DNA from: a virus
Lineage: Duplodnaviria > Caudoviricetes
Reading direction: 5' to 3' (one strand)
IMG/VR virus record: IMGVR_UViG_3300031555_004294
Coordinates: 96,001 to 160,000 of that record
Length of the DNA: 64,000 bases
Shown here: positions 1-50,735 of the stretch, in pieces
Layout: the number at the start of each line of letters is the position of its first letter
How positions within the stretch are numbered: position 1 is the first letter of the stretch
Position numbers and translations under genes: made by a program
Notes under the pieces: model-generated
The model's database searches: none
Seen by the model: the letters and a program-made list of their open reading frames with translations, nothing else
Told to the model about the DNA's origin: nothing

Positions 1-2112
1 TGAAATAAATCTGTCATCCTCAATGAAAGGAATATAAAAATGTCCATCATCCATCTTTATTGGATGAACAACATTTTCATCATGAATTCCTAAGAAAGCT
101 CTCAAATCATCATCGTCGATATTAATGAAGGGGATTTCATTATATGCACCAGTTTCTGAATTTATATCTGGAGAATACTTTATAACTCTTTCAATTGAAT
201 CTTTAAACTCAAAACCATCAAATCCATATTTCTTAGCAACATCTTCTCGTATATATTTTTTATAGCCTTCATTGTATACTGGAGACATAAGTTTGCTGTT
301 ATTTTGGAAAGTATAGACTACAAATAGATGCTCAGCTAATTGTTGATCTTTAATAGAAACTTCCAATTTTTCAGCAATATCATTAGTTAGTCTAATATAC
401 TTAGCTACATCAAGTCCATTCGATTTTTTAACAAAGTCAAATGAAGTAATACTACTTTCAACATTGTCGGAAGGTCCAACATGTACACTACTATTATCAT
501 ATGTGTTATTAGCATTTTTTACGTATCTTAAGTAGTGATTCCTAAATCTAATATGACTAGGTATTTTAGTTTCTAAGTCTTTGTAAAGGATAAATTTCTT
601 CTTACCATCTTCAAATAACATATTTTCAAGATGGTTAGCTACATTACCTTGAACTTCCATAAAGACAAAACTGTCATTTCTAAAATACGTAGGAACACCT
701 TCGTAATACTTAAAGTTTCCATCATTTAGTGAAATTTCATCGTCAACTAATTGATACTTTCCATTTTTATAGACAACTAGACTACCACTAGGAATATAAA
801 ATTCCTCGTTGATATTAAAGTTGTCGCATTGTAAGTTAATTGTATTGGAAGGAATAACCAAACCAGTTTGATCTCGTAATAGAGCATAACCAACATAAGT
901 ACGCTTTAAGATATCATCTCTTTTTTTAATGAAAAGCATTTTACTTGCATTGATAATTTCATCGTTGACGATGTTATTAAAATAAGTGTTTAGGTCAAAC
1001 TCAGTAATAAGGTTTTCTCTATTTAAAAACTCATAAATCAAAGCTTGCTTTACTTCACTTCTAGTTGGCATATCAGTACCACCAGATGGATCATTAAGCT
1101 TGACAATAGTTTTATCTGTTACAAAACGATTTAGAGTTTCATTACTGAATGAATGCTGTAACTCATTGTTGTTATACTTAAAGTTACCAGCTGAACCTAG
1201 AGTAGTATAAATATTCAGATACAGTTTAGAATTGATAACAGGTTTAAAGTTACCAGCTAATCCAGAGAAAAAGATAGTTAAATCAGTATTAGAGAAATTG
1301 TAGAAGCAATAATAAGATTCATCTGGAGTAAAGGTATCATTAAAGTACGGTTTTAGATATTCGTCTACTGTCTGAGTTTTATATCTTACAGTAAAATTCG
1401 CTAAATTATTAGCAAATTCTTGTTCAAAATATAAATTGTCTGATAAGTCACTTGAAAAATTTTCAAATATTTTTTCAGTTTTAGTTACCTGATAAATAGT
1501 ATACTGGATTGTAATAACATCAGTATCGATTGTCGTTGTAGCTCTATTAACCCAAACTGGAATATATGGATTTGTAGAATTACTAAACATACCTTTATTG
1601 TCTTTAGTATTACTTCTGTCATACTGTGCTGTATAAGAATATGATCCATCTATCATTCTAGAAGCTTTTATAACGATATCGTTTTCAGCCATAAATGGAA
1701 TTGTACCACAGTAATATTTATCATTTGTGCTTAATGTAAATGAATATGCATAACTATTTCCATCTGGGATTTTTTTACCATACGTCATGATATCTTTTTG
1801 TGTAATTGTAAAAGTAATATCCATAGACGCTGGTTTTGCCATAGGAATTTCATAGTTATATGATTTTGCTTTGTTATAGATACTCTTAGTTAAAGAAGCA
1901 GTATTTAAGAAACTTTCATCATATAAGAAGTTACGGTGAGCTGTTGCATTACGTAAAGACGTAGCCATAACTTCATTGATGTAACCATATAAACCTATCT
2001 TAAGATGATTTAGATTGTTTACATCTAGGTATTTTGGAGCAATTCTTTCCAACCAATTCTTTTCAAGATCATATTTATCTATAGCAATTTCAGTTAAATT
2101 TTTATCAGCCAA
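1..2112 (-). CDS. Baseplate wedge protein, T4 gp6-like (3' end runs off the window)
   Basis: Not in the ORF track. TTG start at 2112 after GAGGTG RBS. Translation MADKNLTEIAIDKYDLE...YDESFLNTASLTKSIYNKAKSYNYEIPMAKPA matches the gp6-type E-x-FL-x-TA...A...Y...PA N-terminal motif. Confidence 0.75.
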   Translation of the reverse strand, partial: MADKNLTEIAIDKYDLEKNWLERIAPKYLDVNNLNHLKIGLYGYINEVMATSLRNATAHRNFLYDESFLNTASLTKSIYNKAKSYNYEIPMAKPASMDITFTITQKDIMTYGKKIPDGNSYAYSFTLSTNDKYYCGTIPFMAENDIVIKASRMIDGSYSYTAQYDRSNTKDNKGMFSNSTNPYIPVWVNRATTTIDTDVITIQYTIYQVTKTEKIFENFSSDLSDNLYFEQEFANNLANFTVRYKTQTVDEYLKPYFNDTFTPDESYYCFYNFSNTDLTIFFSGLAGNFKPVINSKLYLNIYTTLGSAGNFKYNNNELQHSFSNETLNRFVTDKTIVKLNDPSGGTDMPTRSEVKQALIYEFLNRENLITEFDLNTYFNNIVNDEIINASKMLFIKKRDDILKRTYVGYALLRDQTGLVIPSNTINLQCDNFNINEEFYIPSGSLVVYKNGKYQLVDDEISLNDGNFKYYEGVPTYFRNDSFVFMEVQGNVANHLENMLFEDGKKKFILYKDLETKIPSHIRFRNHYLRYVKNANNTYDNSSVHVGPSDNVESSITSFDFVKKSNGLDVAKYIRLTNDIAEKLEVSIKDQQLAEHLFVVYTFQNNSKLMSPVYNEGYKKYIREDVAKKYGFDGFEFKDSIERVIKYSPDINSETGAYNEIPFINIDDDDLRAFLGIHDENVVHPIKMDDGHFYIPFIEDDRFIS

Positions 2113-11982: not shown

Positions 11983-12669
11983 AAATTTAACTGCGTTTCA
12001 ATAGCATAAACTATTGTCAAAAATTTCTTAATTGCTGGGAACATACAAAAAATTTGTACTATCAGCAGTCATTTATAAAAAAAAAAAGAAAGCCTTATAG
12101 AGACTTTCTTTTTTGTATGGAAATACTTTATTCTGTAACTTCCTCAACAGTTGTTTCTTCTGTAAGAGTATCAGGTTTAATTTCTACCAACTCTTCTTCA
12201 GAAGTAACTTCCTCAGTTACAGTTCCTTCATCGTTATTTTCAGTTTCAGCATTTGCTACATCAGATTGGATTTCCTCCAAGATGTTAGCAACCTGTTCCT
12301 TGAGCTTTGCCTTCTTCTTCTTTCTGATGTGGCAAACAGTACCTACTGCTCCTGCAACCAAAGCAACAGCTCCTACTCCAATAGCGATTACACCAATAGT
12401 CTTTCCGTTCATTTTTTAGTTCTCCTTTTTAAATAAAAATTTTTGTTAGAATAATTTATGTATTTCCTTCTAACTCACAATAAGAATATATATTTGAAAA
12501 GTTGAACTTTACGATTTTTATAAATGATTCAACGACTATATATTACATTCAGAATTTGAATGGAAATTGAAATGATCCTTAACACTAGGATTTTGATATA
12601 GTCTCAACTTCTATGGAAACATAGAGAATATTTTACATGAACTAATGACTCATGTATCAAGATTTTTTG
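11983..12669 (+). mobile_element. Group I intron (IA-like) in terL
   Basis: P1: exon GGACGU pairs with intron GCGUUU, U.G at the splice site. P AAUUGCUGGGAA (~12030), Q UAUCAGCAG (12060), R UUCAACGACUA (12528), S GAUAUAGUC (12595), P7.1 hairpin, terminal G 12669. Splicing restores GR|GLTSPLIYYDEFAF in frame. Confidence 0.93.
12128..12412 (-). CDS. Small single-pass membrane protein encoded antisense inside the intron P6 loop
   Basis: AAAAGGAG RBS, N-terminal TM helix then RKKKK and an acidic tail. Own early-type promoter 12483-12495 and terminator ~12077-12112. Confidence 0.8.
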   Translation of the reverse strand: MNGKTIGVIAIGVGAVALVAGAVGTVCHIRKKKKAKLKEQVANILEEIQSDVANAETENNDEGTVTEEVTSEEELVEIKPDTLTEETTVEEVTE

Positions 12670-22216: not shown

Positions 22217-23734
22217 TTATTTTTTGTCGTTTAAAACAAAGCATTTTTTAGCAACTTTTTGCATAAATCTGTTACGTATTTTACTATGATTTCGGCATTG
22301 CTTGAAACCGTTATCTGTTAGCTGAATGAAGTACTTTTTAAGTCCTTCTTCATTTCTTAATCTACCAGATAATTGTTCCATGATAACTGTAGACGATGCA
22401 CTGACAGTGTTAATTACGATACACAAACCAACAACGTCTACACCTTTACCAAATCCTTTTAAAGTAGTTAGGATTAATTGATTGTCCAATTCTTTATCTC
22501 TAGTAGATTTTGGAACTAAACCACAGAATCTACCAACTTTTACTTTCTTAGCTTTCTTAGTTTCACTGTTTACAAATACTGATTTTGAAAAATCTTCATA
22601 CAATTTTTCTATCATGTTGTTACAGTTTACTACGATTGCTACTTTTTGTTCTGGATCTTTAGTCCATAGGTCATTTAGCAACGCTTTCAACATCTTGAAA
22701 TACTGACTGTATTTTGTCGGTGTTAATAGATAGTCGTTATAGGCATTGCTATCAAATCCATGAGCATTTGACATAGTAAGTTCTTGATATTCTGTTGGAT
22801 GAGAATTCCACAAATACTCAATATATCGAATGTATTTCTCATTTCTAGATTCTGTAAGTCCAAATGTAATTACACCATCGAATAAGTTACTGTAAACTTC
22901 TTGTTCAGCATAATTACTTCTAGCAGGTGTAGCGGTTAGGTAAATGGTATTCTTGACATCCGTGTTAATGTCAATGTAGAAAATATTTCTCCACTCTATA
23001 TGAGCTTCGTCAAATATTTTATCACCTATACCTAATTTTTGGAAAAGATCATTTAGTAGACTCCAATTTCCATTGCAATAAGCATCTAAAGTTCTATGAC
23101 TTGCTAAGTAAACTTTATAAGGATTGTTAGTCTGTTTCATTAACTTTCTGATAGTAGAGCTACCAGAGATTGTAAACATTTCTTCATCTTTGATATTGGT
23201 AAACTTCTTAAAAGAGTCCTTCCATTGTTGAAGGATTTTATCGTTATCAACTATAACAATTGGAATTCTACCTGACTTGGTGACATAATTGATCGCAGTA
23301 TAGGTTTTGCCATCACCTGGCTTTAAACATAAGAATCTTTGGGTTTCATTTTTTAACTCTTTAAAATTACCTTTACTGGTAAGATAGTCGATACTTTCTC
23401 GCTGGATATCACTTCTAGGATCCACTGTTAGTTCTAACTTCATATACTTACATGGTTTACCAGAAGTATCATACTCTAAAGTATGATTAGGAAAGTAATA
23501 CATTAACGTACTAAGCTTGATACCTTTATGGATGTAAAGAATTTCATTTTCTTCATCTTCTTCATAAGCAGACCAAGTAATATAGTTACCACCATTTTTA
23601 GTTTTTTGCCATACGGAAAGCTTATTTTTAAGTTTGACATGATTGCCATTCTTGTAGTTATGAATTGCTATACTAGATGTTAGTACTTTTATGACATCCA
23701 AAATTTTTCCCTCTCTTTCTGATAGATTTTTCAT
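22217..23734 (-). CDS. Superfamily 2 (DEAH) helicase, UvsW-like
   Basis: PGDGKT, IFDEAH, TAT, GKGVD, QLSGRLR motifs. Early-type promoter 23739-23751. Confidence 0.9.
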   Translation of the reverse strand: MKNLSEREGKILDVIKVLTSSIAIHNYKNGNHVKLKNKLSVWQKTKNGGNYITWSAYEEDEENEILYIHKGIKLSTLMYYFPNHTLEYDTSGKPCKYMKLELTVDPRSDIQRESIDYLTSKGNFKELKNETQRFLCLKPGDGKTYTAINYVTKSGRIPIVIVDNDKILQQWKDSFKKFTNIKDEEMFTISGSSTIRKLMKQTNNPYKVYLASHRTLDAYCNGNWSLLNDLFQKLGIGDKIFDEAHIEWRNIFYIDINTDVKNTIYLTATPARSNYAEQEVYSNLFDGVITFGLTESRNEKYIRYIEYLWNSHPTEYQELTMSNAHGFDSNAYNDYLLTPTKYSQYFKMLKALLNDLWTKDPEQKVAIVVNCNNMIEKLYEDFSKSVFVNSETKKAKKVKVGRFCGLVPKSTRDKELDNQLILTTLKGFGKGVDVVGLCIVINTVSASSTVIMEQLSGRLRNEEGLKKYFIQLTDNGFKQCRNHSKIRNRFMQKVAKKCFVLNDKK

Positions 23735-24449: not shown

Positions 24450-24789
24450 ATATCCATACTTTATGTTCTTTAAAGATTAGGGTTTTCCTATAATGGTCTG
24501 GTAGTAAACCATTACAAAGAGGACAATAGTATCTGTAACCCTGTTTTGTTTTGGTTTTATCAGGTTCAGTAGAAATAGAAAGTCCATATGTATTCCATGT
24601 TTCAAATTTTTCTTCTGCTTCACCTATGTAAAAGAATTTATAACAGCAACCACATTGATAGAGATTTTCTTTTACTTGTTTTCCTAGAAAATTACTCAAA
24701 TCATAGACTTTATTACGGATCTTGATTTTATCTTCAACAGATGCTTCGTCATATAATTTTTTAATTTCTTCAATTTTCTTACTTATCAT
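24448..24789 (-). CDS. Zn-ribbon protein
   Basis: CGCC...CPLC. Confidence 0.6.
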   Translation of the reverse strand: MISKKIEEIKKLYDEASVEDKIKIRNKVYDLSNFLGKQVKENLYQCGCCYKFFYIGEAEEKFETWNTYGLSISTEPDKTKTKQGYRYYCPLCNGLLPDHYRKTLIFKEHKVWI

Positions 24790-28295: not shown

Positions 28296-29366
28296 TTATT
28301 GCTCTTCCTGAGCTTCTTCAGTAGTTATAGTAGCAGGAATACTAAAGCTCAACAAAGTGTTTATCTGTTCTCTATCAAGACTTTTGTTAACAAATGTGTT
28401 GAACGCCTTCTCATTCAATACACAACCAGCAGACTTAGGATGACCTCCGCCACCGTACATAGTAGCGATTTGAGCTAGGTTAGGACTATCAAAGATAGTT
28501 CTAAAGTTGACAGTCTTGTGAACCATATCAACAATTGCAATGAAAGAAAGATGCTTGTTTAAAATATTGAGTCGATTACCAATTTCAGAGAAATCCTTAT
28601 CAGCATAAGTGACACCAACATTCATTACTTCACCTTCAAAAGGAAACTGAATTACTTCAAGGTTCTTATTTCTGTCGTTAATTGTTCTACGAAGATTTCT
28701 TTTGACCAATCTGATATTTGAAACCTCCATATTGCTGAAAATGTTATCGAACTTACATGTGATGTAATTGTCAACTTTTTCAAAAGTTCTTTCAAAGCCA
28801 AATTCCTTAAAGTAAATGCTAAGATCTCTAGCACCTTCATTGACAATCTCATAAGTTTCAGGATCTTGGAACTTAAATGTATCCCATGAATCAATTAAAT
28901 CGACAATTTCTCTGTATCTTTCAAAGTCAATATCATTGGTTCTCGGTGCAAATTGATTCTCAGTAAAGTAGTTAAACATGAGTTTTGTTGCACTAAACTC
29001 GTCATTAACAACACTGAAGATTTTAGACTTCTTTAAAAATTCAATTTGTTCATCGGATTTATGGTGATGATCAAAATACACAACAGGATAGCCATTATTG
29101 GCAAGACTATTAAGCTTCTGAAGCTTTTTCAAATCTAGATTAACGTCTGCGACAATCAGACCATTGTAGTTTTTGTAATTTCCATTGTAGAAGGAATCAA
29201 GTACACTATTGACTGTACCATATGAATTATAAGTTGCTTCCTTTACATTGAAAAATGTTGATGCTACTTTTCCACATCCGTAGCCATCGAGATCGTTATG
29301 GAAAATTCCATAGATTTTTCCATGCTTCATTTGATTAAACATAGTTTTGATAGTTGATTGAGTCAT
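28296..29366 (-). CDS. DHH-family phosphoesterase
   Basis: HNDLDG, VAD, FDHH, GGGGHPKSAG. Confidence 0.9.
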   Translation of the reverse strand: MTQSTIKTMFNQMKHGKIYGIFHNDLDGYGCGKVASTFFNVKEATYNSYGTVNSVLDSFYNGNYKNYNGLIVADVNLDLKKLQKLNSLANNGYPVVYFDHHHKSDEQIEFLKKSKIFSVVNDEFSATKLMFNYFTENQFAPRTNDIDFERYREIVDLIDSWDTFKFQDPETYEIVNEGARDLSIYFKEFGFERTFEKVDNYITCKFDNIFSNMEVSNIRLVKRNLRRTINDRNKNLEVIQFPFEGEVMNVGVTYADKDFSEIGNRLNILNKHLSFIAIVDMVHKTVNFRTIFDSPNLAQIATMYGGGGHPKSAGCVLNEKAFNTFVNKSLDREQINTLLSFSIPATITTEEAQEEQ

Positions 29367-42667: not shown

Positions 42668-42782
42668 GAAGTAAATTGAAACAGATAGTTACTAAAACTA
42701 TCTGTTTCTTTTTTTTTATCTAGTTTTTATAGTCTGAAACAATCCATTATTAAAAGAAACGTACGAAAGGAGGAGTTTTCCT

Positions 42783-43953
42783 TTGAAAATAGATATTTGT
42801 AATCTGGACAAATTTATAAAGGTTAACAACATACAAGAAGTTACTAACCCTATACGTTTTGATGCAGATTGGTACCCAACTGATAATGGTCTTTTATCAT
42901 ATAGAATTTTTGGTCAAGTTGGTAGTTATGATAGACGTACTTTATTTGGTTACATCGACCTAAAAGGACACTTTTTACACCCATTATTTTATTTGAGACT
43001 CATAAAAATGAATCGTAATTTTGCTAGAGTCATTGATGGTAGTGGCTATTTTAGAATTAACGAAAAAGGTGAGTTAGTTGCTGATAATGAGAATGGAAAT
43101 ACTGGAATAGCTTGGCTTTATAAGAATTTCAAAAATCTTAAGTTTAAAAAATCGGGTTCAGGAGAGCGAGACAGGACTATAGACCTTCTAACTAAACTTG
43201 ATCTTGATGAAATCTTTGTCAGCAAGTGGCTTGTAATTCCTGCCTTTTATCGAGATTCTAATATACAAAAACTCGATCATGGAAGAGTTTCAGAAGATGA
43301 AATCAACCCTATGTATGCAAATTTGATTTCTCTGGCAAGTTCTAAATCAGATTTCGACTTTATGGGATATATTACGGAATCTAGAATTCAAAAACAGCTT
43401 TTAGAAATCTATGATTACTTGACTGGATATATCAAGGGTAAGACTGGACTTCTCAAGAATAGTTTGCTCGGCAAGACTGTGGACTATTCAACTCGCGGTG
43501 TTATCTCAGCAGGTAGAGTCAATTCTAATACATCAGATGAACAATTGGTAAAGTTTACTTATACTGGCATTCCTTTATCTCATTTGTGTAACTTATTCTA
43601 TCCTTTCTTCCAATACGAGATAGCTAGTTTTGCAGAAGAAACCTTTGCATCAGTTAATGAAATTAGGGGTTCTGATGGAAATTATTATCCATTGGTAAAT
43701 CCTATGAGTAAATTTACAACTGAAAAGATAAAAGGGATGATGAACTTATATATTAAGTCACCTGATAATAGACTTGATCCAATCATGGTTCCAATTAGGC
43801 TTAAGAATGGAAGTGTTAAAGAAGTTCCTTTAAATCTCTTCCAAGATGATTTAAAGAGACACTTTACTTTACTGGACTTGATATACATTGTTGCAACTAG
43901 AGTTTGTCTTGACAAACATGTGTATGTAACTCGATTTCCGATTGAAAACTATC
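42783..43953 (+). CDS. rpoC: Phage RNA polymerase beta' N-terminal/catalytic subunit, exon 1
   Basis: GLLSYRIFG, FGYIDL, KGKTGLLKNSLLGKTVDYSTRGVI, TRFP. Late promoter 42738-42749. Confidence 0.9.
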
Positions 43954-45503
43954 GTGTGTCACGTTGATCTATAACTTGAAAGAATCAAGGAAATGATCGA
44001 TATAAGTATACTTATGTTAACTGTAAGTTTGATTGGTGGAATGAAATACGGCAATCAGTATGAAACACCAACATTAATACTCCTACATGCATTAAAAAAT
44101 AGCTAGAATTATTTAATGTGTGAAGCTAGGTGAAGACGTATTCATAGTAATGCGGATGGTTCTATAATATGGTGAGGAACACGAATTTTCTAACGTCCAA
44201 TGTTTTGGGATTAGTAGTATGATAGTGGCGAAAATCCTATTGAATGATGCTTCAATTGAAAATATTGGGAACAGAAAACACCTAAGTTATAGAAATACTA
44301 GAATTTACGGAACGTGAGAAGTTTCTATAAAAAGAAAATAGCTGATACTTTTTATAGAAATGGCAGCAGCCTGTAGTAGCGATGAAGCTTTTGTAATGAA
44401 AGTGGAGTGAAGGGGCATAGTCAATTTTTTGATTGAACTTTTTCTAACGATCAAACAATTTATTAAATACTTTTACAAAGGAGATTAATAAAATGGGTAG
44501 AAAAAGTAAATCACATGAAGATTTTGTTAAAGATGTTATGAATATTTTAGGACCAGAATATCAAGTGCTGGGAAAATATATCAAATGTTCTGAAAAAATA
44601 AAAATGAAACATTTAAAATGTGGATTAGAATATGAAACTGAACCTAGAACTGTAATGCATGGATCAGGATGTCCAATATGCAATACCGATTTTCATATGT
44701 CACATGATGAATTCGTTTCAAAAGTAAATAAAGAGGGAGATAACGAATATGAAGTCCTAACTCCTTATATCAATACAAAAACAAAAGTAACGCTAAAACA
44801 TAAAGTGTGTAATGAAATTTATGAAGTTGCACCTAGAAATTTCTTTCAAGGTAAAAGATGTCCAAAATGTACTAAAGTAAAACGTGTGACAAATGAAGAA
44901 TTTGATCGACGTCTGTTAAACATTTATGGAAATGAATGGACTAGAGTTTCAGAGTTTATGGCAATAAATAAGGAAATTCTAGTTAAACACGAAAATTGTG
45001 GGAACATAATTAAGAATACTCCAAAAGTTATTTTAAGTCAAAGATTTGGATGTAAATATTGTAAGATGACTAGCGGAGAATTTAGAATTAAATCTGTTTT
45101 AGAAAACTTAGATATAAAATTTACCCCACAAAAGAAGTTTGATGATTGTAAAGATCTAGGTTACTTATTTTTTGACTTTTATTTTTGTATTGACAATAAA
45201 GAGTATATCATAGAATATGATGGACGACAACATTTTCTTCCTATTTTTGGTCATAATGATAAAGAACGACAAGAACGTTTAGAATTTACGCAAAAACATG
45301 ATGAGATGAAAAATTTATATTGCGAAAACCATAATATAAATTTGCTGCGTATATCATATGATACTCCCTATCAGAATATTCAATCAATAATTGAAAACTT
45401 CATAAAGAAAAATTGATGGAACGCTGTGTGAGGTGAAAGTCTCACGCACAGTGTGAAGTGGGGGAAAAAATAGAGATAACTTCAAAGTTTTACCTATCAC
45501 TAT
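43954..45503 (+). mobile_element. Group II intron in RNAP beta'
   Basis: 5' GUGUG, 3' ...CACUAU. Domain V aaCGCtgtgtgaggtGAAAgtctcacgcacagtgt at ~45419-45454. EBS1 GATAGT (44221-44226) is complementary to the exon end ACTATC. Splicing restores TRFPIENY-Q-SIYPSRIK. Confidence 0.92.
44493..45416 (+). CDS. Intron-encoded endonuclease: three Zn-ribbon repeats plus a Vsr/DUF559-like PD-(D/E)xK domain
   Basis: H..C...CPxC repeats, FDFY...IEYDGRQH...D..KN.YC....I.LLRI. No RT (YADD) motif. Stop lies directly before domain V. Confidence 0.85.
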   Translation: MGRKSKSHEDFVKDVMNILGPEYQVLGKYIKCSEKIKMKHLKCGLEYETEPRTVMHGSGCPICNTDFHMSHDEFVSKVNKEGDNEYEVLTPYINTKTKVTLKHKVCNEIYEVAPRNFFQGKRCPKCTKVKRVTNEEFDRRLLNIYGNEWTRVSEFMAINKEILVKHENCGNIIKNTPKVILSQRFGCKYCKMTSGEFRIKSVLENLDIKFTPQKKFDDCKDLGYLFFDFYFCIDNKEYIIEYDGRQHFLPIFGHNDKERQERLEFTQKHDEMKNLYCENHNINLLRISYDTPYQNIQSIIENFIKKN

Positions 45504-45865
45504 AATCAATCTATCCAAGCCGTATAAAAATAATGACTACTTACAAGACTCAAAAAATAACAATTGCTAACAAGTATTATGACAATTATCCTGTAGTTAC
45601 TACAGATTTTGATAGTCCTAGTTATGATGAAAACATGAACTATATCGATACCATAATTCCCCATAATACGATGTTGGAAGCCTTGGGTGCAGACTTTGAC
45701 GGAGACACGGTTTCTTTAAGATCTGTCTATTCACAAGAAGCAAACTTAGAATGTGAGAAACTAATAAACTCACCTAAGTATCTTTTAGATGTAACAGGAA
45801 AAACTACTAGAGTTTTGCGTAACGAAGGTATTCAAACTCTTTATACTTTAACAAGAGAAGGTTAA
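45504..45865 (+). CDS. rpoC: Phage RNA polymerase beta' catalytic subunit, exon 2
   Basis: GADFDGD active-site motif. Confidence 0.92.
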
Positions 45866-46184
45866 TTTTTTTACCGTATTATCGGAAGTTCTATCTATAT
45901 ATCTTGAACTAGATACTTAGGAGCTTTAAGTAAAACTAGTTTTTGACATAATGATGGATTGGACGGAATAGACAATGTTTTGTACAAAAGAAATGAACAT
46001 GGAATATTGTAAACAAAAATTACACTTTCAAATACAAAAAAAAAAAAAGAAAATCGTTTAAACTTTTTTAAGAGAAGAGGTAACCCCTCTTCTCTTATTT
46101 TCTTTCTTTTGTTTTGCAAAAATTAGAGACCAAACAATAAAATAATCATGGTTTACAATATTTGTAAAGGAGGAAATTACATTT

Positions 46185-46964
46185 ATGGATGAGAAAAATA
46201 AAGAAGTTCAAGAGAATTTATATTCCAAAGATCTTTTCGAAGAAGAAATGAAACAATTGGATTCTGAACTGAAAGAAATAGATGCACTTTATGGCGAGAT
46301 TAAAACGCACTATGACACTATAAAGAATGCTCAGTTTAAAGGAAGCTTAGTTTTTTTGAAAGATCAAACAAGTAACTTGATTTCTTTAAAAACTGCAAAG
46401 CTGAGTTATATAAAACAGAAGGCAGACCTAAAGAAAACTATCACTGACTATGCATTCAAAGAGAAAGCTTCTAACAAACAAGATACGGAAGTTGATACTC
46501 TTACAGAAGCTATCTATAAGAAAATTACCAGTGAATTTGGTTATGTCACAGATAAAGAAAGTGAACCTCATGTAAATGAAGTTGACAATATAGACACCCT
46601 ATTAGATGAAGAACTTGAAAATGAAGACATTGGAAATATCATTGGAAGTAGTGTGAGTATTGAAACTGTAGAAGTTGACTATGAAACTGGTGAGGTTACT
46701 GAAGACGAAAATGATGAAGAAAATAATATCGAGAATGTTGTCGATTCAGAGCCTGAAGTAGATGAAACTAATGCGAATACTGTAATTGCGGTAGACATGG
46801 ATACTAACACTTTTTATCAAATTGATGAAAAAACCTTTGAAATTGTTGAAGAATTAGGTACAATGGAAGATAAAATTGTTGATGAAGTAGAAATTGAGAA
46901 TGATCTATATGCAATTGGTGAAAGTGGGAATATGTATCTCGTTATAAGTTTCGATGAAGAATAA
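46185..46964 (+). CDS. Hypothetical late protein, coiled-coil N-terminus and acidic C-terminus
   Basis: Late promoter 46133-46144, AAGGAGG RBS. Confidence 0.65.
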   Translation: MDEKNKEVQENLYSKDLFEEEMKQLDSELKEIDALYGEIKTHYDTIKNAQFKGSLVFLKDQTSNLISLKTAKLSYIKQKADLKKTITDYAFKEKASNKQDTEVDTLTEAIYKKITSEFGYVTDKESEPHVNEVDNIDTLLDEELENEDIGNIIGSSVSIETVEVDYETGEVTEDENDEENNIENVVDSEPEVDETNANTVIAVDMDTNTFYQIDEKTFEIVEELGTMEDKIVDEVEIENDLYAIGESGNMYLVISFDEE

Positions 46965-47013: not shown

Positions 47014-47493
47014 TCAAATTAGTTTCTCAGCTTTTAAAATTTCTAAAATTCTTTCTACATGGTTTTCTTTATATGTGATTCTGTAAAGTCTTATTTTATG
47101 TTTCTTACAGTAATCGTTCTTTATAGCATCATTGGTCAATGTATTTTGAAAGTTTTCTAATTTCTGTTCCTCACTTAATCCAAAACAAGGTTTATAATGT
47201 TGAACTCCATCATACTCAACTAGGAAAAATCCTTTCGTAGTATAGATACAGAAGTCAAATGGTAATTTTCTATGATTGTAGCATTCATTAAAAATTTTCT
47301 CTTGGTCGTATTTGATATGAAATGCATCTAGTATTGCAATGATGTCTTTCATAGGTTTTGATACTTTTGGATTGATACCTTTCTTTGCAAAGCTGTTGAT
47401 CAGAGTATTAGATATGGAAAATTCGCCATCTATTATCTTTGCAGTATCTAAGGTATTTCTTAAAAATCCACCAAGTTTATTAAAGAAACCCAT
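47014..47493 (-). CDS. Free-standing Vsr/DUF559-like endonuclease domain protein
   Basis: PFDFCI...VEYDGVQHY...ND..KNDYC...I.LYRI. Late promoter 47520-47531. Confidence 0.75.
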   Translation of the reverse strand: MGFFNKLGGFLRNTLDTAKIIDGEFSISNTLINSFAKKGINPKVSKPMKDIIAILDAFHIKYDQEKIFNECYNHRKLPFDFCIYTTKGFFLVEYDGVQHYKPCFGLSEEQKLENFQNTLTNDAIKNDYCKKHKIRLYRITYKENHVERILEILKAEKLI

Positions 47494-49970: not shown

Positions 49971-50735
49971 TTATTCTTTATATTTTAGATCCATCAAGTA
50001 GTTCATAAAGATACTGTAGTCTTTATCTACTACTTTGATGTACTCATACTGTGTTTGTTTTGCCATTACTACATCTTTGATTTTTTCCTTAGCTTTATCA
50101 ACTTGTTGAATCTTTTCATGACGATTAGGATTGGATCCTCCATCCTTAATCTCAACTATTAGATTAAGACTAGCGATGTAAAAGTCAGGTATATAAAAAT
50201 GATCTTTTCCTTCATAAGTGTAATGAAAGATTTGTGGAGCTGGAGCGAAGATGTCATTAGGGGACATTCTCATAACTAAGTCTAAGAATTCTAAGAATTC
50301 ATGTTCATAAGAACCAGTGTATTTAGTTTTAGACTTTCCATCCGACCAAGTATAAACTCCTGAAATCTTACGATTCCCTAGCATTTTGGACTGTTGATTT
50401 GGATCATCTAAAAGGTGTGTCTTACCATACTTGGATAACATTCTTTTTTTGAACTCTTCTCTATAATCTTCCTTACATTTGTCAGAACAAAATCGTTCAT
50501 ATCTCTCTGTAGACTCATTCCATTTAGTTTCTTTATGGCACATGACACAAGAACCTTTAGTTTTCTTGTATTTGTAATTAAAATAACTTTGAGCTGGAGA
50601 TAAACCTTTTAAATCTTCTTCATGTGTTAATTCCATATGAGAATACAAAGCTGATTTTGCTTTAGGTTGATCTTTCTTATCATTTGCTAAGTACTTGTTA
50701 GTACAGAACGGACACTTATAAAATGTTCTAGCCAT
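49971..50735 (-). CDS. Zn-finger plus TnsA/T4 gp4-like PD-(D/E)xK nuclease
   Basis: C2H2 CPFC...H...H, CVMC...FCSDKC, GSYE, YIPDFYI...VEIK. Confidence 0.7.
   Translation of the reverse strand: MARTFYKCPFCTNKYLANDKKDQPKAKSALYSHMELTHEEDLKGLSPAQSYFNYKYKKTKGSCVMCHKETKWNESTERYERFCSDKCKEDYREEFKKRMLSKYGKTHLLDDPNQQSKMLGNRKISGVYTWSDGKSKTKYTGSYEHEFLEFLDLVMRMSPNDIFAPAPQIFHYTYEGKDHFYIPDFYIASLNLIVEIKDGGSNPNRHEKIQQVDKAKEKIKDVVMAKQTQYEYIKVVDKDYSIFMNYLMDLKYKE

Follow-up and report, generated by a model that had tools for sequence, protein, structure and literature searches.

Group II introns that carry an endonuclease in place of a reverse transcriptase (RT) are known from phages. Merk, Jones, and Eddy (NAR 2025, PMC12350094) describe 20 phage group II introns, with a homing endonuclease gene (HEG) replacing the RT in four, and three of these four are located in genes for the N-terminal part of the virion RNA polymerase (RNAP) beta' subunit. 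Their HEGs combine CapR/DUF4379/DUF723-like modules with an EDxHD/Vsr-like domain, and HEG-mediated DNA homing is the mechanism proposed for them (PMC12350094). Here we report on an intron of this type at positions 43,954 to 45,503 of a 64,000-nucleotide stretch of phage DNA (the window), which corresponds to bases 96001-160000 of the 299,070-bp IMG/VR virus record IMGVR_UViG_3300031555_004294 (CheckV completeness 100%). The source, an uncultured 299-kb fecal virus, is an AR9-like jumbo phage from animal feces and is absent from the 20 of the 2025 survey, in which IMG/VR was searched and summarized as a whole (9,229 genomes; PMC12350094). The original prediction, made from the letters of the window, held bacterial group II introns to be rarely described in phages; that statement is out of date, as the survey describes this very kind.

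We favor the reading that the element is an endonuclease-bearing, maturase-less group II intron that splices and that homes at the DNA level, and put the probability of this package at roughly 0.85. It is virtually certain that the group II intron is genuine, that its domain IV (D4) holds a Vsr/EDxHD-type HEG, and that it lacks an RT. The locus has the features by which phage group II-HEG introns are recognized, with a DUF4379 match, a Vsr-like fold, an open reading frame (ORF) between the D4 stem strands, and the AR9 insertion site. The architecture and mechanism are already published for the orthologues in AR9, PBS1, and MarsHill (PMC12350094), and the 2025 picture is unchanged by this intron, which adds an uncultured gut jumbo phage and a metagenomic contig (L016) to the few phages with an RT-less, HEG-bearing group II intron in a virion RNAP gene. 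Two observations are new here: a covarying D4 stem that contains the stop codon of the intron ORF, and an intron-less allele whose exon junction coincides exactly with the predicted splice site and which occurs together with the intron-plus form.

The interrupted gene and the ribozyme

The intron splits the gene for the N-terminal subunit of virion RNAP beta' (Table 1), with exon 1 ending in VTRFPIENY and a 110-aa ORF at 45533-45865 in exon 2 carrying ALGADFDGD, so that the predicted placement between the TRFP and DFDGD motifs is borne out. The exon 1 ORF begins at 42783 and runs in the ORF list to a stop at 43967; the exon has 44.6% identity to spliced AR9 g145 and matches PHROG 2986 ('RNA polymerase beta subunit', 539 positions) at profile positions 8-421 (E 4.7e-84). 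Exon 2 matches the same profile at positions 423-535 (E 4.4e-23), together with a weak Pfam RNA_pol_Rpb1_2 match, and since the two profile matches meet at positions 421/423, the exons abut exactly. Excision of 43954-45503 joins ..ACT CGA TTT CCG ATT GAA AAC TAT C to AA TCA ATC TAT CCA.., giving a predicted spliced junction of AACTATC followed by AATCAATC and a 510-aa open frame (..VTRFPIENY-Q-SIYPSRIKIM..). This protein is colinear across the junction with uninterrupted 539-aa IMG/VR homologues (L006 and L007) and with the spliced AR9 and L016 proteins, and the insertion lies within a conserved R(F/Y)P..(S)IYP block, between TRFPIENY and QSIYPS and upstream of the catalytic DFDGD. The junction restores the motif RFPIENYQSIYP, which is uninterrupted both in homologues that lack the intron and in the intron-less allele described below. 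The exon 1 search of IMG/VR found only two distant (about 30%) uninterrupted homologues.

Two Rfam models, both matched above their gathering scores, support the prediction of a group II intron at 43954-45503. Model group-II-D1D4-5 (RF02004) aligns at 44016-44166 on the plus strand with 91.2 bits (E 2.9e-18; gathering score 34.5), and Intron_gpII (RF00029), which covers domains V and VI (D5/D6), aligns over its full model (1-77) at 45419-45503 on the plus strand with 56.6 bits (E 1.9e-8; gathering score 40); the latter is the only D5/D6 match in the whole phage record. The hallmarks that had been named (a GUGUG start, pairing of exon-binding site 1 [EBS1] with intron-binding site 1 [IBS1], a CGC triad in domain V, and an AY end) are all present: GTGTG stands at 43954, EBS1 GATAGT forms six Watson-Crick pairs with IBS1 ACTATC at exon positions -6 to -1, the RF00029 alignment confirms the CGC triad, and the 3' end reads CACTAT, with AT at 45502-45503. 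The same alignment places a bulged A of domain VI at 45496, 8 nt from the 3' end. Homology to its AR9 counterpart assigns the intron to class IIB.

Exon recognition appears to have evolved with the target. The contig L016 has the same GATAGT/ACTATC pair, AR9 and Internexus have GGTACT/AGTATC, and the LPJP1 terminase intron has AGCGGT/ACCGTT; different EBS1/IBS1 sequences thus stay complementary across introns, including one in a different gene, which is covariation with the target exon. Alignment to the AR9 intron (L001:3782-5333), the ORF-less Internexus intron, the MarsHill intron, and the ORF-less LPJP1 terminase intron shows that the blocks of domains I (D1), III (D3), V, and VI are kept in all five introns and that the ORF is a discrete insert. 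RNAalifold predicts 71 pairs in D1 to D3 of these five introns, with compensatory double changes in 37. The D4 basal stem is likewise upheld by compensatory changes in AR9 (TCAGTTTAA/TTAAATTGA), MarsHill, Internexus, and LPJP1, and because its 3' strand holds the TGA of the ORF, the ribozyme incorporates the last part of the reading frame. In L016, the HEG frame ends at 2677, about 37 nt past the position where the D5/D6 Rfam match begins (2640; L016:2640-2677), and so it reaches deeper into the ribozyme than here, where only the D4 stem is overlapped.

Pfam models RVT_1 (PF00078) and GIIM (PF08388) have no match at E <= 1 in the complete 299,070-bp record, a result that covers the genome search for a trans-acting RT suggested at the outset. 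The intron ORF itself has no RT or GIIM match in Pfam, as had been predicted, and the nuclease is the sole intron ORF. Splicing in vivo is very probable: the interrupted gene is essential, compensatory changes have preserved the ribozyme, and the phage that has the AR9 orthologue is viable. The ribozyme would remove itself from the mRNA, with A45496 as branch point and EBS1-IBS1 pairing for exon recognition, and would join ..ENY-Q-SIY.. to restore one 510-aa subunit. As neither the intron nor the phage encodes a maturase, splicing would be autonomous or aided by an unrecognized factor, and we put splicing without a protein helper at about even odds.

Terminator-like hairpins at 42678-42708 and 46069-46097 flank the RNAP gene on both sides, and the gene order is that of AR9, with the DNA polymerase gene upstream. 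A sigma-70-like promoter match at 44141-44168 was rejected as an internal promoter; it overlaps the conserved ribozyme sequence CTATAATATGG.

Table 1. Coordinates of the intron, its host gene, and related features (window positions unless marked; D, intron domain)
Feature	Position	Strand	Remarks
Exon 1, virion RNAP beta' N-terminal subunit gene	42783..43953	+	390 codons and first base of Gln codon; ends ..VTRFPIENY
Group II intron	43954..45503	+	1550 nt, GUGUG...AU; Rfam matches; AR9 insertion site; intron-less allele joined at 43953
Domains I-III	43954..44420	+	D1 basal stem TCACGTT / AACGTGA; conserved D3 region CAGCAGCCTGTAGTAGCGATGAAG
Candidate EBS2 TTTTC	44186..44190	+	Pairs with exon GAAAA at -10..-6
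EBS1 GATAGT	44221..44226	+	Loop of hairpin GGGAT...ATCCT
D4 basal stem, 5' strand TCAATTTTT	44421..44429	+	Pairs with 45408-45416
Intron ORF in D4 loop	44493..45416	+	307 aa; Shine-Dalgarno AAAGGAG at 44478-44484, spacing 8 nt
Zinc ribbons of ORF	Residues ~20-63, 83-126, 150-190		Three H/C-x2-C...C-x2-C modules
Vsr/EDxHD-like nuclease domain of ORF	Residues 192-307		
D4 basal stem, 3' strand AAAAATTGA	45408..45416	+	Includes last codon of ORF and TGA stop
Domains V and VI	45419..45503	+	RF00029 alignment; CGC triad in D5, bulged branch-point A in D6
Exon 2	45504..45865	+	AA of Gln codon, 118 further codons, stop; holds catalytic ADFDGD
Group I intron matches (genome positions)	23086-23271, 24574-24781, 28634-28833, 180037-180250, 180603-180849, 292162-292359	-, -, +, +, +, -	

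The intron-encoded protein and its relatives

The ORF in the D4 loop is, by its modeled fold, a zinc-ribbon Vsr-like endonuclease. Pfam reports DUF4379, a treble-clef zinc finger, above its cut-off (E 1.3e-6, 29 bits), and PHROGs matches are to phrog_559, 9084, and 7140 (endonuclease, homing endonuclease, and intron-encoded nuclease; E 2e-72 to 4e-17). A search of 5.8 billion proteins returned 66 relatives, and homologues of the ORF carry PF14311/PF05265/PF21817. An alignment of 31 homologues shows three H/C-x2-C...C-P-x-C repeats followed by SxGE...FDF...IEYDGxQH...D..IK...LLRI.Y; residues C60, C123, C126, C187, C190, and E241 are invariant among them, and D228, H247, D270, and K273 are conserved in at least 90%, with D243 less so.

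An AlphaFold2 model built from the same alignment has a mean predicted local distance difference test (pLDDT) score of 91.5. With VIA-align, model residues 192-307 superpose on Escherichia coli Vsr (1cw0_A) with Z 12.6 and 2.1 A over 108 residues, on the catalytic domain of I-Bth0305I (3r3p_A) with Z 11.9 over 93/97 residues at 22% identity, and on the DUF559-type protein 3hrl with Z 10.4. The domain match is clear only with VIA-align, the whole-model Foldseek search giving only E values of 1e-3 or higher, and a search of PDB by sequence with the HEG profile gave no meaningful match (best E 0.16). The expectation of a DUF559/Vsr-type nuclease in domain IV therefore holds for the Vsr-like fold, and the DUF559 part is found by sequence only as a weak, sub-threshold Pfam match, alongside DUF5889 and DUF2726.

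Relatives of the HEG fall into several groups. At the orthologous site, identity is 40% to AR9 g147, 49% to the HEG of L016, and 52% to P0003, in whose contig a 109-aa ORF comes after the HEG; tblastn finds paralogues in the same genome (29076-29993, 23265-24221, and 246489-247715) that are 25-31% identical. As the nearer relatives are those at the orthologous site and not the paralogues of the same genome, the HEG has traveled with the intron and its site instead of having been swapped in recently. A search of IMG/VR with the single HEG gave 20 loci (L018-L037) at 28-42% identity, and none of the 20 has an Rfam intron match at the gathering threshold within 2.5 kb; these relatives look free-standing or sit in introns missed by Rfam. 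Near this HEG, most of the nuclease family seems to stand free.

The phage is heavily laden with introns yet has a single group II intron. At least six group I intron matches (44.7-57.1 bits) are present in the genome, four of them above the 50-bit gathering score, and those at 23086-23271 and 28634-28833 adjoin zinc-ribbon/Vsr HEG paralogues; a weak match of 30 bits lies inside the window at 12530-12626 (plus strand). Two other ORFs in the window are of related or possibly related types. The 159-aa ORF at 47014-47493 (minus strand) consists essentially of the Vsr/EDxHD-like nuclease domain and has no zinc modules, matches PHROG 9084 'homing endonuclease' (E 3e-22), and shares 36% identity with residues 199-289 of the intron HEG; it is free-standing, 1.1 kb downstream of the RNAP gene. 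The 254-aa ORF at 49971-50735 (minus strand) matches Pfam DUF7487 (E 1e-6), has treble-clef-like zinc motifs, and may be another free-standing homing-endonuclease-like gene.

Alleles, mobility, and alternative explanations

Eight fecal-metagenome DNA runs hold the stretch, and contigs of four of them were placed on 42700-46200. In run X5, a 369-nt contig (depth 2.9) is identical to 43781-43953 and then skips to 45512-45696, with the intron missing and AGTCATTA replacing AATCAATC (45504-45511); the sequence flanking the insertion point in the intron-less target is GAAAACTATC on the upstream side and AGTCATTATATCC on the downstream side. Further downstream there are 35 differences and two compensating indels, and the allele rebuilt from the listed differences (..TRFPIENYQSLYPSRIKIMTTYKTQKIEIANRYYDEYPVITKEENSPVIDENINYIDTIIP) keeps an open frame (..TRFPIENYQSLYPSRIKIM..) with 12/70 residues changed. 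Intron-plus contigs span 44970-45982 in the same run, which shows an intron presence/absence polymorphism among co-resident phages. The intron-less contig independently fixes the 5' boundary between 43953 and 43954 and the 3' boundary at the codon level. Other contigs have loose ends, at 45505 (X5 and X7) and at 44392/44425 (X3, X5, and X6), where a D3 or D5/D6 match is followed by unrelated sequence, which places related group II introns at other sites or in other genomes in the same fecal samples.

The two alleles differ asymmetrically about the insertion site. At least 173 nt upstream are identical, and the downstream side has changes at +2, +6, and +8, then 48 identical bases, and about 23% divergence from +57. 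As read from one low-depth contig, this asymmetry is suggestive of recombination at the insertion site. It is a tentative interpretation, less likely than not, that the intron has been caught in DNA-level homing within a natural gut phage population, the pattern being the trace of one-sided co-conversion or recombination or marking a target variant that resists cleavage. If true, it would be the first population-level evidence of an RT-less phage group II intron moving like a group I intron, and the allele differences would give the likely target of the endonuclease and its resistance positions. The natural intron-plus/intron-minus pair from one sample is also material for cleavage and homing tests of a very abundant endonuclease family.

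Endonuclease-initiated DNA homing is the probable mode of mobility. The D4 protein would act as a homing endonuclease, in which a Vsr/EDxHD-type nuclease follows three DNA-binding zinc ribbons; during co-infection it would cleave the allele without the intron close to the insertion site, and repair from an intron-plus genome would copy the intron in, as in group I intron homing. Indirect support comes from the apparently intact nuclease domain, in which the catalytic-motif residues are kept, from orthologous introns at this codon even where the host protein is only 45-60% identical, together with the ORF-less Internexus copy, and from the co-occurrence of intron-plus and intron-less alleles in one metagenome.

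Several points weigh against this reading of a splicing, DNA-homing intron. D5 has CGC in place of the canonical AGC triad; CGC is a known variant and no disqualifier, being listed for AR9, PBS1, MarsHill, and two LPJP1 introns (Table S1 of PMC12350094). The pairing search found no 6-bp EBS1-IBS1 in MarsHill, and EBS2-IBS2 of the present intron is a weak 5-bp candidate with several alternatives and without covariation support. Among the sequencing runs found, no RNA run holds the stretch, and splicing is predicted from the DNA. The intron-less allele comes from a single contig of low depth and could derive from a diverged co-resident phage instead of reflecting a recent gain or loss, and a trans-acting host RT or maturase may act on the intron. 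Site-specific cleavage by the HEG is likewise a prediction.

Retrohoming in trans, with the nuclease ORF as an unrelated passenger in D4, is improbable. The intact EBS1-IBS1 pairing fits it, as do the other group II introns with similar D5/D6 in the metagenomes, and trans-acting RTs have been raised for ORF-less phage introns such as that of LPJP1 (PMC12350094). The pairing is required for splicing in any case, however, and the phage record is without an RT or maturase. Group II RTs usually bind D4 of their own intron, a domain that is occupied here by the HEG, and at this site the HEG remains intact although the proteins of its host genes share only 45-60% identity.

It is also quite improbable that the intron is an immobile relic, fixed and vertically inherited, that needs only to splice and has an endonuclease in decay or in a new role, such as aiding splicing or excluding competing phages. 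The identities of ribozyme, HEG, and host gene drop together (host protein 60% and HEG 49% for L016; 45% and 40% for AR9), which fits a long co-divergence, and Internexus has lost the ORF and kept the ribozyme. Against this, the ORF is of full length, all orthologues keep its zinc ligands and nuclease motif, and the co-occurring intron-plus and intron-less alleles with their 173-nt identical upstream flank suggest a recent gain or loss. A dead ribozyme in a gene whose two parts are translated separately is hardly credible. The products would be a 394-aa polypeptide with the C terminus ..ENYRVSR and a 110-aa one started by an ATG at 45533, 29 nt inside exon 2, and jumbo-phage RNAP genes are split in nature (PMC7598289). 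Compensatory changes, however, keep the ribozyme in five lineages, the junction restores a motif that runs unbroken through the intron-less homologues and allele, and no Shine-Dalgarno sequence is evident before 45533.

Comparison with described introns

The intron is, on sequence grounds, an orthologue of the same-codon introns in Bacillus phages AR9, PBS1, and Internexus and Staphylococcus phage MarsHill, with insertion point and codon phase identical in this intron, AR9, Internexus, MarsHill, and the Logan metagenomic contig L016, which has both Rfam matches and the HEG. The insertion site is thus conserved across phages of Bacillus, of Staphylococcus, and of unknown hosts. The closest counterpart is intron 1 of AR9/PBS1 g145, found by blastn in both phages with 71% identity over 47% of the query and annotated as 'DNA-directed RNA polymerase beta' subunit' and 'homing endonuclease'. 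GenBank gives AR9 g145 as a three-piece join and labels g147 'group I intron VSR', and Table S1 of the survey lists the AR9 and PBS1 introns at 1551 nt with D1D4-5, CGC, and AT, and also includes MarsHill (PMC12350094). The present intron shares with these the gene, codon, and phase (..R(F/Y)PIE(N/Q)Y followed by Q..), a nearly equal length (1550 nt here versus 1551), the D1D4-5 model, the CGC triad, the AT end, and a zinc-module and Vsr-like HEG in D4 (g147 in AR9), and in AR9 the TGA stop of the HEG also lies inside the D4 stem. It differs in its ribozyme, of which 47% can be aligned, at about 71% identity, and in its 5' end, which is GTGTG here and GTATG in AR9. AR9 also has a second (group I) intron with a 'Hef-like' HEG inside the D(F/Y)DGD codons (L001:5334-5550), a site that is uninterrupted in this phage (window 45504-45865) and in L016.

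The Internexus beta' intron has the same insertion site and is ORF-less, at 595 nt by the boundaries used here (594 in Table S1 of PMC12350094), and as a ribozyme without an ORF it marks the ORF of the present intron as a discrete insert in the D4 loop. The MarsHill intron, also at this site and with an HEG, begins with GTGCG, and its EBS1-IBS1 pairing is weaker and its D1 shorter.

For the encoded protein, the C-terminal 115 residues share with I-Bth0305I and Vsr the fold and an E..D/H..D-type motif, with a similarity that is below HMMER detection against PDB and with an N-terminal triple zinc-ribbon array that is particular to the ORF; I-Bth0305I, moreover, resides in a group I intron. Outside phages, group II introns with LAGLIDADG or GIY-YIG endonucleases in fungal and algal organelles and in Thiomargarita (for example, PMC3498182 and PMC13190283) are reported to show the same combination of an RT-less ribozyme and a DNA-level HEG. 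The organellar and Thiomargarita introns differ from the one described here in having a nuclease of another superfamily, often in another insertion domain, and rRNA or organellar targets.

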